Below, one piece after another: positions 648 to 12,893 of a stretch of 64,000 bases of DNA (position 1 is the first letter of the stretch; each line of letters opens with the position of its first letter). Source of the stretch: Escherichia phage WPEC5; sequence record PV654397.1; one strand, given 5' to 3'. Made by a program: the position numbers and the translations under genes. A model generated the notes under the pieces. The model was not told the origin of the DNA. It saw only the letters and a program-made list of their open reading frames with translations, and did no database searches.

Positions 648-653
648 CATTAC

Positions 654-682
654 GCCAGTACTCTGTACTGGCTTTTCTTTTT
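654..682 (+). terminator. intrinsic terminator hairpin GCCAGTAC-TCT-GTACTGGC + T-run
   Basis: 8-bp perfect stem then TTTTCTTTTT right after stop codon; element recurs along the array. Confidence 0.7.
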
Positions 683-686
683 GTAT

Positions 687-701
687 TAAATATAGTATAA
701 T
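687..701 (+). promoter_or_regulatory. promoter-like motif TAAATA-N3-TATAAT
   Basis: conserved block ATTAAATATAGTATAAT 17 nt upstream of ATG, followed by AAAGGAGGG RBS. Confidence 0.5.
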
Positions 702-718
702 GAATAAAGGAGGGAATT

Positions 719-1909
719 ATGTTACCTTTTGTTAGAATGTTTGATTATGGGAATATCACACCTGAACCTCTTCAAATTAAGAAAATAATACCAACTGATA
801 CTGAGGTTGTTGTACTTTATACCGACGGTCAACTATACGCACGAGGCAGTAATAGTTATGGGAAGTTTGGTAGAGGAAATAATAATGCAGTAAGGTCGTG
901 GACATTAATTAGAGAAAATGTCAAAGATTGCTGGATGACACAAGGAACTTTGTTAGTACAAGATAATGACTTAAATTATTTTTATTGTGGATATGGTAGT
1001 CATATTGGTTTACCAACTAGTACTACTACGTTTTTAAGTTATAACCAATATATTGAAAATTTGTACACACAAAGTTCAAGTACTTCAATTAAACAGATGT
1101 ATGCAGGTACTACGTGGTTTACTTTCTTAATGGATAATAATACAATATGGAGTACAGGGTGGAATAGTGCTAGACAATTCGCAGATGGTACAGGAACTAC
1201 TTATCAAATATCAGATGGTTCATTTGTTAAAGCGGTAACACCAGATGTTGATATTGCACAAATAATGTCAACATATAACTGTGTAATGTTGTTTGATAAA
1301 CAAAATAATTTATATATTGGTGGTAGTACATCTGGCATAAGTACTAGTACCACATGGACACCATTTAATGAATATACTTTATATCAGCCAAGTACCACAT
1401 ATACAAAAACATTACAATATACTGTTTGTTCATTTGGTGCTGTCAGTGCTTTAGTAGAGAATCCAAGTACAGGAGCACGTCAGTTTCTAGTTGGTGGATT
1501 AGCTAATAATGGAGCATGGGGAAATAAAACTACATCTAGCACTGTTAATGGAGTTTTAGGAAATAATAGTGCTACATTACCACCCGGTACTTTGTATTCA
1601 ATTCATACTGGATACCCAGCACAATCTAGTATACTAGTTACGAGTGCAGGTGTATATGCAACTGGTTTAAATGCGAGTAGTTATGCTGGCACATTGGGTG
1701 TTGGTTATGATGCTACCATTGGTAAATTTACTGCATGTCCATTGCCGTCAGAAATAACATATTCTATGTATGATAAAATAAAAATATATCGCGGTTCGTT
1801 GCGTACTTTCCTAACTGCTGATATGAAAAATATATATTCAACCGGAACTTATGATGATGGTGGTCCTAGTACAAATAGATATGTTCTGGATACACCTAGA
1901 CAATTGTAA
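719..1909 (+). CDS. RCC1-like beta-propeller repeat protein, array paralog
   Basis: strong RBS; N-term MLPFVRMFDYGN; blades such as GSNSYGKFGRGNNNA. Confidence 0.9.
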   Translation: MLPFVRMFDYGNITPEPLQIKKIIPTDTEVVVLYTDGQLYARGSNSYGKFGRGNNNAVRSWTLIRENVKDCWMTQGTLLVQDNDLNYFYCGYGSHIGLPTSTTTFLSYNQYIENLYTQSSSTSIKQMYAGTTWFTFLMDNNTIWSTGWNSARQFADGTGTTYQISDGSFVKAVTPDVDIAQIMSTYNCVMLFDKQNNLYIGGSTSGISTSTTWTPFNEYTLYQPSTTYTKTLQYTVCSFGAVSALVENPSTGARQFLVGGLANNGAWGNKTTSSTVNGVLGNNSATLPPGTLYSIHTGYPAQSSILVTSAGVYATGLNASSYAGTLGVGYDATIGKFTACPLPSEITYSMYDKIKIYRGSLRTFLTADMKNIYSTGTYDDGGPSTNRYVLDTPRQL

Positions 1910-1916
1910 TGTAAAA

Positions 1917-1945
1917 GCCAGTACTTGATACTGGCTTTTCTTTTT
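1917..1945 (+). terminator. intrinsic terminator hairpin GCCAGTA-CTTGA-TACTGGC + T-run
   Basis: perfect inverted repeat followed by TTTTCTTTTT. Confidence 0.7.
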
Positions 1946-11008: not shown

Positions 11009-11014
11009 TATAAT

Positions 11015-11043
11015 GCCAGTACTATGTACTGGCTTTTCTTTTA
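11015..11043. terminator. bidirectional terminator hairpin between convergent genes
   Basis: GCCAGTACTATGTACTGGC + T-run; lies between + gene 9872..11008 and - gene 11041..11691. Confidence 0.6.
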
Positions 11044-11691
11044 CATATTATATAATGTGAATGCAGTTACTTTACCAGTTGTTGTTAGTTCATTATAAAG
11101 ATACTCCAAGATTCTCGCACACTCTAAGTATATCTCGATATCATCATGAATAAGTGAGTACTGAAATAGCTGTTCTTCAGATAATTTGTATTGACTTCCT
11201 TTTAATGAATTGAGAATATCTTTCACATCATCAAGTACTGGGTAAAGTACGAAATCTTCATCATATTTTGAAGCAATAAATTCAAATCCACCACCATCAG
11301 TACTAGATATACCAATCAGTACTTTATCAATCAAGTTAATGTTTATATAACGGTTGTGATTTGGGTGAATTGAAATCTCAAACATACGAGTACTGTTACA
11401 ATCAACATCAATATACAAATATACATCGTTGAATTTATAAGTTAAGCAACCGTACTCAAGAAAATCAGAGCAAATAATTGATGAGTTTTTTCTCGTCTCT
11501 GCGTAATGCATCTTGATATTCTTTTCACGCATAAGTAATTCGAACTTTGCACTAAACTTGCCACCAGCAAGATAGTTAGTATTAGGACGTTTGTAACTTG
11601 CAACTGGTCGGTGGGATGATGTAAAGTATTTTTTTGTGAATCGTTTATGTTTAGTGAAATATTCTTGATAGAACTTACTTCTTTTATTCAT
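11041..11691 (-). CDS. hypothetical protein (216 aa) interrupting the array
   Basis: long minus-strand ORF between array genes; no motif recognised. Confidence 0.6.
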   Translation of the reverse strand: MNKRSKFYQEYFTKHKRFTKKYFTSSHRPVASYKRPNTNYLAGGKFSAKFELLMREKNIKMHYAETRKNSSIICSDFLEYGCLTYKFNDVYLYIDVDCNSTRMFEISIHPNHNRYININLIDKVLIGISSTDGGGFEFIASKYDEDFVLYPVLDDVKDILNSLKGSQYKLSEEQLFQYSLIHDDIEIYLECARILEYLYNELTTTGKVTAFTLYNM

Positions 11692-11737
11692 GAGTACCTC
11701 AATTAAATCGCTGTAAAATTGTACATTATAAAATGAT

Positions 11738-11752
11738 TAAATAAAGTATAAC
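11738..11752 (+). promoter_or_regulatory. promoter-like motif TAAATA-N3-TATAAC
   Basis: TTAAATAAAGTATAAC 16 nt upstream of ATG 11769; same spacing as array cassettes. Confidence 0.45.
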
Positions 11753-11768
11753 ACAAGGAGATTTTATC

Positions 11769-12893
11769 ATGTTACCTTTCGTATTGTTATTTGATTATGG
11801 GAACGAAAAACAAGAAAGTTCTTATGATGTTAGTGTATATGGAAACAATAACTACATTTTAAATAAACAAACTGGAAACCTTTTTGCATCCGGTGCTGCG
11901 GCATTCATGGGTGATAACACAGTTAAGTATTATATTACCCAAATAGAATCAAATGTTCATAGCTGTGAGATAGGTTTCCTATCATCATGGATAATTAAGA
12001 AGGACAAAACTGTTTTCATTTTAGGAAACAAAAGCAGTATAGGATTAACTGGTTCGACAACATCATGGTTCGAAATTACAAATTTATTTTCTGCTGTTCC
12101 TGAAATATGGGACAACCTATTTGAATGTAAAGTTCAATTGGGATATAACTGTATACGTGTTATGACACCACTAGGATCAATCTATGCGATTGGTACAAAC
12201 ACTTATGGTGCATTGGGTACTGGTACTACATCCTCATCAACTTCGTTCGTTAAAAGTGGTGCTGTGGATGCTGTACGCATGGAATCAACAGAACGTTCAG
12301 TGTTCTATCAAAACAGTTATGGACAATGGTTTGGATGTGGTGATAACACATATGGTATACTAGGTCTAGGAACTACCGCTAGTCGTGTAAACTCATACAC
12401 CGCACCAGTATGGACTAATGCAGAAGCTGTTAGCTTCTCTAACCGTGGGATCATATACAGCCTCAATGGTACTCTATACTCATGTGGTGACAAAGTTAAT
12501 GGTCAGCTAGGGGATGGATATACACAAAGCATAGACGCAGCCAGGAGCACACCATACACCATAGGAACCGCATTCCAAATTGGTAAGGCAATAACATCAG
12601 CTACACAAGCATCAGCCAACGTATTCATTGGTAAAGATAATAAGTTCTATGGTACTGGTAGTATTGCTGCTGGTATAAATGGTAGTACTAGTGCTGCATT
12701 AAGTAAAGTTACTGCGTTATCAGCAGCACTACCACCTGACATTACATACAATGATATTATAACATTCAATACAGGGACCGTAACTTTTATTCAAGCAAAA
12801 GGACAACTATATTATGTTGGTAGAAGAACTTACATAGATAATAGTTCAGACGTTACCACACAGTTCAGTGTAATTGGTGGCTTAGATAATTAA
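11769..12893 (+). CDS. RCC1-like beta-propeller repeat protein, array paralog (outlying copy)
   Basis: N-term MLPFVLLFDYGN; YGALGTGTTSS, NGQLGDGYTQS. Confidence 0.85.
   Translation: MLPFVLLFDYGNEKQESSYDVSVYGNNNYILNKQTGNLFASGAAAFMGDNTVKYYITQIESNVHSCEIGFLSSWIIKKDKTVFILGNKSSIGLTGSTTSWFEITNLFSAVPEIWDNLFECKVQLGYNCIRVMTPLGSIYAIGTNTYGALGTGTTSSSTSFVKSGAVDAVRMESTERSVFYQNSYGQWFGCGDNTYGILGLGTTASRVNSYTAPVWTNAEAVSFSNRGIIYSLNGTLYSCGDKVNGQLGDGYTQSIDAARSTPYTIGTAFQIGKAITSATQASANVFIGKDNKFYGTGSIAAGINGSTSAALSKVTALSAALPPDITYNDIITFNTGTVTFIQAKGQLYYVGRRTYIDNSSDVTTQFSVIGGLDN

Follow-up and report, generated by a model that had tools for sequence, protein, structure and literature searches.

The first 36 nt of ten tandem genes in Escherichia phage WPEC5 are nearly the same, and the rest of each gene has diverged. 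These genes lie on the plus strand at 719-12893 of a 64,000-nt stretch of the phage DNA (record PV654397.1; the whole stretch is called the window here), and their starts read ATGTTACCTTT(T/C)G. The question raised by this locus is what has kept so short a 5' block alike: the 12-residue peptide that it encodes (called the tag here), the nucleic acid itself, or exchange of DNA among the genes.

The explanation that we consider likely has two layers, a virion tag acting at the protein level and recombination acting at the tag DNA. The array would consist of genes for accessory virion proteins, each made of the 12-residue tag, a short proline-rich linker and a highly diverged body of the binding type. 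The initial annotation had proposed gene conversion, cassette exchange or selection on an RNA-level element. The first two were supported, the third was not, and the protein-level module, the primary cause of the conservation, was missed.

A megablast search with positions 600-12900 had matches in Asteriusvirus jumbo coliphages and in related jumbo phages of Salmonella only. At the top were fEgEco12, vB_Ec-M-J, Turkey3 and BF17, followed by phAPEC6, 121Q and G17. By these matches the window is from an Asteriusvirus jumbo coliphage of the 121Q/phAPEC6/fEgEco12 group. The array was 97-98% identical to its relatives, yet at most 48% of the query was covered in one place. This indicated a hyperplastic locus in an otherwise well-conserved genome of 350-380 kb.

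The conserved 5' ends of the array genes

The ten starts reported by the initial annotation were all correct. The pattern ATGTTACCTTTTG, with one mismatch allowed, gave 10 matches in the 64 kb against 0.27 expected, all of them at array starts. The genes, which are referred to below by their start positions, are as follows.

719..1909, plus strand: RCC1-like beta-propeller gene, 396 amino acids (aa); tag MLPFVRMFDYGN, nt 719-754
1982..2719, plus strand: glycine-rich protein, not RCC1, 245 aa; phrog_4474, related to Pfam Gly_rich_2; tag MLPFARIVKYGN, nt 1982-2017
2792..3922, plus strand: RCC1-like gene, 376 aa; tag MLPFARMVKYGN
4001..5176, plus strand: RCC1-like gene, 391 aa; tag MLPFARMVKYGN
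5186..6304, plus strand: RCC1-like gene, 372 aa; tag MLPFARMVKYGN; only a Shine-Dalgarno (SD) sequence upstream; orthologue absent from the five genomes compared
6317..7465, plus strand: RCC1-like gene, 382 aa; tag MLPFVRMFDYGN, disordered in the AlphaFold2 model
7480..8640, plus strand: RCC1-like gene, 386 aa; tag MLPFVRMFDYGN; missing from fEgEco12 (within an indel)
8711..9856, plus strand: RCC1-like gene, 381 aa; tag MLPFVRMFDYGN; missing from fEgEco12
9872..11008, plus strand: RCC1-like gene, 378 aa; tag MLPFARMVKYGN
11769..12893, plus strand: RCC1-like gene, 374 aa; divergent tag MLPFVLLFDYGN (TTC GTA TTG TTA)

The nine propeller genes are 372-396 aa long. Pfam RCC1, RCC1_2 or WD40_RLD was matched by 9/10 array genes, every RCC1-family match of genes 8711, 5186 and 9872 falling under the curated cut-offs. 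Gene 1982 stood outside the RCC1-like propeller class (Pfam PF00415/PF13540/PF25390).

Two DNA subtypes of the coding starts, described by the initial annotation, were read directly at the ten positions. The A-type (GCA AGA ATG GTT AAG TAC) is found at 2792, 4001, 5186 and 9872, with an ATT variant at 1982. The V-type (GTT AGA ATG TTT GAT TAY) is found at 719, 6317, 7480 and 8711, and 11769 is a divergent variant.

The nine RCC1 paralogues were aligned by codon, and codons 1-12 were compared with the bodies. Identity in codons 1-12 was 84.6% for DNA and 82% for protein, and reached 97-100% for DNA within a subtype; in the bodies it was 40.4% and 21.6%, respectively. Identical residues shared the same codon in 78% of cases in the tag versus 44% in the body. 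The abrupt loss of identity noticed earlier after codon 12-13 was seen as a collapse of the per-site information profile over 48 Asteriusvirus genes. The conserved block was also recovered independently by a repeat search.

The tag in other phages

The tag consensus is M-[LI]-P-F-x-R-[MIL]-x-x-Y-G-N, of which the Asteriusvirus form is M-L-P-F-x-R-M-x-x-Y-G-N. A tblastn search with a 23-residue query found 60 phage records, all Rak2-like with genomes of 310-386 kb. The hosts were Escherichia, Salmonella, Erwinia, Yersinia, Cronobacter, Serratia, Pectobacterium, Klebsiella (fENko-Kae01) and Xanthomonas. The 32 Escherichia phage records among the matches listed had 5-15 tag places each. Forms of the tag in individual phages were as follows.

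GAP32 gp001 and gp002: MLPF[SA]RI..YG[ND]
Yersinia fHe-Yen9-04: MLPFP[IV]I...
Erwinia Kaldavass: MLPFP...YGN
Salmonella 7t3: MIPF[TAS]RIL.YGN, in ~15 genes
Pectobacterium CBB_548-554: MLPF[SPA][RI]...Y[GA]N, in 7/7 genes

The bodies behind the tag were of several kinds. Those of the window are nine RCC1 propellers and the glycine-rich protein, which is not RCC1 (phrog_4474/Gly_rich_2). In other genera the tag was followed by Kelch propellers, a 674-aa RCC1+Kelch fusion and LamG/ConA-like lectin domains (Pfam Laminin_G_3; phrog_6011, 'virion structural protein'; phrog_3545). When a profile of the tag was run against 1.84 billion representative proteins, 46 matched, in all but three repetitive artefacts at residue 1 or close to it. 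RCC1 proteins predominated among the matches, as the first propeller strand was part of the profile, and the search added little on the diversity of the bodies.

The glycine-rich body was also found in unrelated phages of ~150-216 kb (e.g. PVP-SE1 protein 19), with a different start, M[LIF]E[LM][LM]...G. This indicated that the N-terminal peptide tracks the phage lineage, not the body. In one phage of ~150 kb (an E. coli-associated contig, L013:459-1109 and 8001-8693), a LamG protein and a glycine-rich protein have this kind of start in common (MNEMLMLG and MLEMLTVG, respectively; M[LN]EML..G). Sequence comparisons of this kind suggest that lineage-specific N-terminal tags on small binding-domain proteins are perhaps a general phage device.

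By the comparison across genera, the peptide was shown to behave as a portable protein-level module of this phage clade, under peptide-level selection. Such a clade-specific tag would direct otherwise unrelated proteins into the virion. The literature searched, for the motif and for RCC1 proteins in phage virions, did not describe the tag.

A tagged RCC1-like gene of 390 aa (MLPFARMVKYGNRAPT), unannotated, was found in vB_Ec-M-J far from the main array (L011:4001-5173, at ~98812-99984 of the record, minus strand). It adjoins nrdD and a large hypothetical gene, and carries the TAAATAnnnTATAAT motif and a different terminator.

Association of the tagged proteins with the virion

Mass spectrometry of purified phAPEC6 particles has detected gp003, 005, 006, 007, 009, 010, 549 and 551 (PMC7247149, Table 1). 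Checked by coordinates, 8/8 of these begin with the tag. In CBB, the products CBB_548, 549, 551, 552 and 553 were likewise detected by mass spectrometry (PMC5259590), and 5/5 were found to be tagged. GAP32 gp001, which also carries the tag, is a published structural protein. Published detection in virions covers 14 tagged proteins in all (8 of phAPEC6, 5 of CBB and 1 of GAP32).

Four tagged genes of phAPEC6 are unannotated or mis-annotated (2434-3543, 6063-7253, 7325-8059 and 3614-4810). gp004 is annotated at 7716-8018, inside the 244-aa glycine-rich gene, and the start of gp002 is placed 108 nt too early. The first three of these genes were therefore invisible to the published proteomics.

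Array-type genes carry annotations such as 'DNA condensation protein', 'regulator of chromosome condensation', 'E3 ubiquitin-protein ligase HERC1' and 'X-linked retinitis pigmentosa GTPase regulator', and the literature has treated them as 'DNA condensation' proteins or inner-body candidates. Such product names are transfers from eukaryotic RCC1-domain proteins, and a DNA-related role is unsupported by anything found here. The array proteins are near neutral (isoelectric points 5.3-9.2), with ~12% charged residues and 45-52% S/T/N/G/Y. This charge-poor composition did not suggest DNA binding.

The bodies resemble adhesin modules. Those with LamG domains matched families whose annotations are baseplate wedge subunit or giant virion protein. 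No phage-particle chain in the PDB contained the array proteins. Taken together with the predicted folds described below, the family matches favour an external ligand-binding role. Most likely the tagged proteins dock on the particle surface, although we infer both this step and their place outside or inside the particle. The tag would attach them as interchangeable ligand-binding heads to a common particle-surface acceptor.

Hair-like fibres that are unexplained are present on the tail of phAPEC6 and CBB, and in phAPEC6 on the capsid too. A bolder form of the docking idea, which we hold only tentatively and rate somewhat below an even chance, is that the tag is the universal plug of Rak2-like jumbo phages, clipping exchangeable heads (RCC1/Kelch propellers, LamG lectins and glycine-rich fibre tips) to a common acceptor. 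Candidates for the acceptor are the hair-like fibres that phAPEC6, CBB and 121Q bear on tail and capsid. Every particle would carry an assortment of adhesins, and recombination at the tag itself would reshuffle the repertoire. The variable tag residues 5, 8 and 9 (A-VK, V-FD, G-IK, A-MN) might choose among acceptor sites.

Alternatively, the tag could be a capsid-targeting sequence (CTS) like that of T4, binding to the scaffolding core. The diversified proteins would be packed into the head and leave it together with the DNA, for instance to bind defence proteins of the host, and the conserved 5' ends and cassettes would allow them to be reshuffled, as at the internal-protein locus of the T-even phages. 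This polymorphic locus and its CTS were reportedly described by Repoila et al. in 1994 and by Mullaney & Black in 1996.

An N-terminal peptide of ~10-12 residues is the sole conserved part of otherwise unrelated virion proteins in both systems (for the T4 CTS, PMC3012670), and both loci are polymorphic between close relatives with conserved 5' ends. A T4-like prohead protease, scaffold and inner body are present in the phage (PMC7247149), a hyperplastic array fits an arms race, and each paralogue is low in abundance. On the other hand, the tag has no sequence similarity to MKTYQEFIAE, and neither a conserved prohead-protease site, (L/I)xE, nor a conserved Glu. Among 72 array genes, residues 8-30 held [LI]xE in 6 and [SAG]xE in 22. 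T4 internal proteins are small and basic; the tagged proteins are not basic, and their bodies are propellers, lectin-like domains or fibre-like folds with relatives in baseplate, tail-fibre and giant virion proteins. We therefore consider capsid targeting unlikely, and surface docking remains the preferred reading of the virion association.

Predicted structure of the tagged proteins

AlphaFold2 was run with paralogue alignments on the propeller encoded by 6317-7465 and on the glycine-rich protein. The former gave a seven-bladed propeller (mean predicted local distance difference test score, pLDDT, 87.4; predicted template-modelling score, pTM, 0.87), and the latter a confident fold (pLDDT 91.4, pTM 0.88). 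In both models residues 1-10 were without secondary structure, with pLDDT of 49 in the propeller and 42 in the glycine-rich protein.

The propeller fold matched UVR8, RPGR and RCC1 with template-modelling (TM) scores of 0.65-0.77, and its sequence and fold matches in the PDB included HERC2. The PDB matches started at ~residue 20, and residues 13-18 are proline-rich (consensus I-A-P-x-P). These results, together with the disorder of residues 1-10, suggested an architecture of tag, linker and body, in which the tag does not form a blade strand. For the glycine-rich model, the top-ranked PDB fold was the fibre of cyanophage Pam3 (7ypx_A; E 9e-4, probability 0.97, low TM). The next were the Bxb1 tail tip (probability 0.44) and the glycine-rich domain of ALK (0.11).

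These models bear on another alternative, in which the tag belongs to the fold, as a 'velcro' strand closing the propeller, or else acts as a signal in folding, chaperoning, export or turnover. RMFDYGN is loosely like the xLYxxGxN strand of RCC1 repeats, and propellers are often closed by an N-terminal strand. However, the tag is also present on glycine-rich and LamG bodies, which are not propellers, and AlphaFold2 placed it outside both folds; the velcro strand was rejected on these grounds. The late start of the alignment with RCC1 structures also argues against it. For export, the tag is too little hydrophobic to be a Sec or lipoprotein signal. A chaperone or turnover role is conceivable, but this family of explanations as a whole is very unlikely.

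Codon usage in the tag

Codon usage in the tag was compared with that in the bodies of 48 Asteriusvirus array genes. Codon 2 was TTA in 48/48. Codon 3 was CCT in 48/48, and the bodies use CCT for 31% of Pro and prefer CCA (53%). Arg6 was AGA in 46/46 (42% of Arg codons in the bodies), and Lys9 was AAG in 29/29 (29% of Lys codons in the bodies). Gly11 was GGG or GGA in every case; GGT, the codon of 63% of the Gly residues in the bodies, did not occur there. In four Asteriusvirus genomes, codon heterozygosity at L2, P3 and R6 was 0, against 0.56-0.72 expected from body usage; at Y10, G11 and N12 it was about as expected. Codon bias was rejected as the source of the synonymous identity, as the fixed CCT, AAG and GGR codons are non-preferred in the bodies.

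In Salmonella 7t3 and Pectobacterium CBB, heterozygosity was near expectation (P3, 0.48 and 0.57; F4, 0.32 and 0.41, respectively). These phages keep the peptide while its synonymous sites vary, which indicated that the peptide can be maintained without DNA identity. As judged from codon usage, the DNA identity of the Asteriusvirus tags is in excess of the peptide requirement, and homogenisation of the DNA is a trait of particular lineages, namely Asteriusvirus and, it appears, Kaldavass.

Could the peptide then be incidental, and the conserved block serve chiefly at the nucleic-acid level, as an mRNA 5' structure, a translation-initiation enhancer or a DNA site? The synonymous sites of codons 2-7 are invariant in Asteriusvirus with non-preferred codons fixed, codon 2 is nearly invariant across all genera, and a weak pairing of the SD sequence with CCUUUU occurs in some predicted folds. 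When -25..+60 of six genes was folded, however, the structures were no better than those of shuffled sequences (z -0.35 to +1.33), and an Rfam search at E<=1 gave only a chance Thr_leader match far below threshold. The peptide is kept in 7t3 and CBB while the CCN, TTY, Arg and Gly codons vary about as in the bodies. In addition, the two subtypes differ at five or six nucleotides without compensating change, and the variable positions alter the amino acid. The RNA-level element envisaged by the initial annotation was thus left unsupported, and a nucleic-acid element as the primary cause is extremely improbable.

The pairing of SD AGGAGG with codons 3-4 (CCUUUU), which are anti-SD-like, is weak and was the only recurrent predicted pairing (706-731 and equivalents). 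It may relate to the invariance of CCT in Asteriusvirus, although the folding statistics do not support the link.

Recombination at the tag

Comparison of the window (W) with fEgEco12 gave four homology blocks of 94-99% identity: W1-2828, W2717-4036, W6313-7511 and W9859-14000. One fEgEco12 gene between 1982 and 2792 is missing from the window, and the window has two extra gene pairs, 4001+5186 and 7480+8711. All six internal block ends (2717, 2828, 4036, 6313, 7511 and 9859) fell within tag, SD or cassette intervals, and upstream regions were found swapped between orthologues. These results supported the proposed exchange of cassettes, the 64-65-nt units described in the next section.

To follow individual tags, 72 array genes from six genomes were grouped as orthologues by clustering their bodies at >=70% amino-acid identity. 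CMSTMSU (L010), whose record is frameshifted and unverified, was left out. Orthologues with near-identical bodies in other Asteriusvirus genomes were found to carry different tags, in support of gene conversion. In the 396-aa group the tag reads VRMFDY for the window, fEgEco12 and vB_Ec-M-J, and ARMMNY for phAPEC6, G17 and 121Q; in one 369-aa group, each of five phages has a tag of its own. Between lineages, the tags of orthologues diverged by 14-22% where the bodies differed by 2-3%.

Two pairs of genes illustrate the tracts. L001_11830 (phAPEC6) and L002_10886 (fEgEco12) diverge by 2% in the body and by 14% in the tag. Their alignment is identical from ~+45, has six differences in codons 5-11, and is wholly different upstream. 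L001_1218 (phAPEC6) and L003_12069 differ solely in a patch over codons 8-13, with both flanks identical.

The tag was nearer to a same-genome paralogue than to any inter-lineage orthologue in 31/32 genes, a comparison that is partly trivial because each genome holds 10-14 near-identical tags. Tag types, defined by residues 5, 8 and 9, are A-VK and V-FD in the window lineage, and A-VK, G-VK, G-IK, A-MN and G-LK in the phAPEC6/121Q/G17 lineage. The VFD tags are restricted to the window/fEgEco12/vB_Ec-M-J lineage, as are the MN and G types to the other. A hybrid tag of fEgEco12, MLPFVRMVKYGN (L002:354-392, gene L002_354), has V at position 5 and VK at 8-9, and from its sequence looks like a recombinant formed within the 36-nt tag.

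As the comparison with the related genomes showed, this is concerted evolution by short-tract conversion and unequal crossing-over. The 36 nt of the tag with the upstream SD, plus the 65-nt cassette for half of the genes, would act as dispersed direct repeats for the homologous recombination of the phage. Unequal crossing-over between them would add, delete and replace whole genes, and short-patch gene conversion would homogenise and swap the tags. The tract boundary would be set where the paralogous bodies become too divergent to pair. Recombination at such repeats accounts for DNA identity that is near-perfect to codon 12 and ends abruptly where the unrelated bodies start.

Another alternative is that the genes are old duplicates without recombination, their first 12 codons frozen by purifying selection and their bodies diverged perhaps under positive selection. 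In its favour are the clear purifying selection on the peptide across genera and the body similarity of the V-type genes 719, 6317 and 7480, the highest among the paralogues (29-32% amino-acid identity). It runs counter to what the orthologues show, however, and can be given next to no credence. Old duplicates selected only for the peptide gather synonymous differences, as in 7t3 and CBB, and the Asteriusvirus tags are without them. Tags differ between orthologues with 97-98% identical bodies, linked changes come in blocks of five or six that are seen again in many paralogues, and tag types follow the lineage and not the orthologue.

A diversity-generating retroelement, an integron or an invertase was also considered as the mechanism. 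The bodies differ throughout and not in a confined variable region. Neither the open reading frame (ORF) list of the window nor the annotations of related loci contained a reverse transcriptase, integrase or invertase; they were consulted without a family search of the neighbouring ORFs or a scan for template or inverted repeats.

Cassettes and layout of the array

A terminator-promoter-ribosome binding site block had been taken as conserved before the array genes. The block is real and 64-65 nt long, but its full form precedes only five of them (719, 1982, 2792, 4001 and 8711). It consists of an 8-pair stem-loop with a T-run followed by TAAATATAGTATAAT and AAAGGAGG. Genes 5186, 6317, 7480 and 9872 start 9-15 nt after the preceding stop codon, with the SD as the only common element, and gene 11769 has its own, related promoter-like region. 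The cassettes and related elements are as follows.

654..718, plus strand: cassette copy 1; terminator stem-loop 654-672 with T-run, promoter-like TAAATATAGTATAAT at 687-701, SD AGGAG at 708-712
1917..1981, plus strand: cassette copy 2; terminator 1917-1935, promoter-like 1950-1964, SD 1971-1975
2727..2791, plus strand: cassette copy 3; terminator 2727-2745, degenerate promoter-like 2760-2774, SD 2781-2785
3936..4000, plus strand: cassette copy 4; terminator 3936-3954, promoter-like 3969-3983, SD 3990-3994; heads the four-gene unit 4001-8640
8647..8710, plus strand: cassette copy 5; terminator 8647-8665, promoter-like 8679-8693, SD 8700-8704
11015..11040, no strand assigned: sixth copy of the cassette-type terminator (11015-11033), bidirectional, without the promoter half; lies between gene 9872-11008 and the minus-strand gene 11041..11691 and is common to both
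11738..11768, plus strand: related promoter-like motif TAAATAAAGTATAAC and SD, 5' of the last array gene
12898..12924, no strand assigned: bidirectional terminator closing the array

From the positions of these elements, the apparent transcription units are 719, 1982, 2792, 4001-8640 (four genes), 8711-11008 (two genes) and 11769. Five full copies and one half copy of the cassette lie within 11 kb, and elsewhere in the 64 kb only one distant relative of the terminator was found. Related genomes have at least eight cassette copies in the array.

The -10 box of the cassette is a perfect TATAAT, and TTTTCT (3/6) is at the -35 position. A scan with the sigma-70 consensus did not report the cassette promoter, and there were fewer promoter-like sites in the region than in shuffled sequences. 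A sigma-70 reading of the cassette promoter was rejected.

The same promoter-like motif (TAAATACGTTATAAT) was seen upstream of an untagged 385-aa gene at 45820-46977 (plus strand), which stands among minus-strand genes, and a cassette-related stem-loop terminator (GCCACTACATTGTAGTGGCTTTTCTT) downstream of it. The occurrence of both at 45783-47010 indicated that this type of promoter and terminator is not exclusive to the array.

Two further genes belong to the layout of the array.

3..647, plus strand: 3' portion of an additional RCC1-like paralogue, from the ORF list; aligns to the fEgEco12 array
11041..11691, minus strand: untagged gene of 216 aa inside the array, in opposite orientation

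The first of these places the upstream end of the array beyond the window edge, by alignment. The second keeps its position in the six Asteriusvirus genomes compared and had no Pfam family.

Directly downstream of the array are seven tandem paralogous genes for small membrane proteins (104-123 aa; 12929-15368, minus strand), followed by an ATPase-like 256-aa gene (15436-16206). The synteny of the tagged array, the membrane-protein array and the ~256-aa gene is also annotated in CBB, Kaldavass, Yen9-04 and Asteriusvirus genomes.

Discussion

Several points weigh against the combination of a virion tag with recombination at its DNA. The docking step and the location of the tagged proteins on the particle rest on inference. 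Coverage in the phAPEC6 mass spectrometry was low, at 1-5 peptides per protein, so that co-purification is possible. The low pLDDT of the terminal peptide is weak evidence. In several genera, usage is biased at codon 2 (TTA or ATA) and towards TAC-GGR at codons 10-11, so that some selection at the nucleotide or translation level may add to the pattern. The naive chance that 6/6 block ends fall in junction intervals covering 6.6% of the array is 8e-8, but BLAST blocks necessarily extend into shared repeats, and this statistic places the junctions in the repeats without pointing to an enzyme. Finally, the cassette has no acceptable -35 box.

The array resembles the promoter early stem-loop (PeSL) cassettes of T4-type phages, which are terminator-promoter-SD units through which modules are shuffled in hyperplastic regions (Arbiol et al. 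2010, PMC2839356; Comeau et al. 2014, PMC4122927). Here, too, a small composite unit of terminator stem-loop, promoter and SD/start codon is present in many copies in a hyperplastic region, and the indel and replacement junctions between close relatives fall in the repeats. Unlike in PeSLs, the repeated homology enters the coding sequence by 36 nt, as a conserved peptide tag, and half of the junctions use the SD and tag alone, without the cassette. The promoter differs in having no sigma-70 -35 box, and is maybe phage-specific or of a late type. The genes encode virion proteins and not early ORFans, and the phage is a Rak2-like jumbo phage.

The pattern agrees with concerted evolution by gene conversion: within a genome or lineage, paralogues resemble one another in the tract more than orthologues do, and there are mosaic patches and sharp boundaries. 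The tract differs from the usual cases in being extremely short (~25-110 nt) and in coinciding with a functional peptide and regulatory signals, while the remainder of each gene wholly escapes homogenisation.

In phages with multiple tailspikes or branched fibres (CBA120 TSP1-4, G7C gp63.1/gp66, and the depolymerase sets of K64-1/RaK2), the proteins are attached by N-terminal anchor or adaptor modules. Many alternative bodies, which are receptor-binding in those phages, behind a conserved N-terminal element in a tandem recombining locus are common to both systems. The anchors, however, are folded, tens to hundreds of residues long, and belong to trimeric spikes; the tag is a linear peptide of 12 residues on small, probably monomeric globular proteins.

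Genes that GenBank and the literature name 'DNA/chromosome condensation proteins' are thus placed in another light, as the evidence points to a diversified family of virion accessory proteins defined by a 12-residue tag. The locus is also a natural example of concerted evolution over a very short tract, with an internal control in the same peptide of other genera, where the DNA is not homogenised. If the tag is an incorporation signal, it would give a handle on the hairy decorations and the host-interaction strategy of a large jumbo-phage clade, and a minimal peptide with which foreign proteins could be displayed or packaged by 350-kb phages. A functional peptide-coding segment would then itself be the recombination substrate that shuffles its genes, which would extend the PeSL model into coding sequence.

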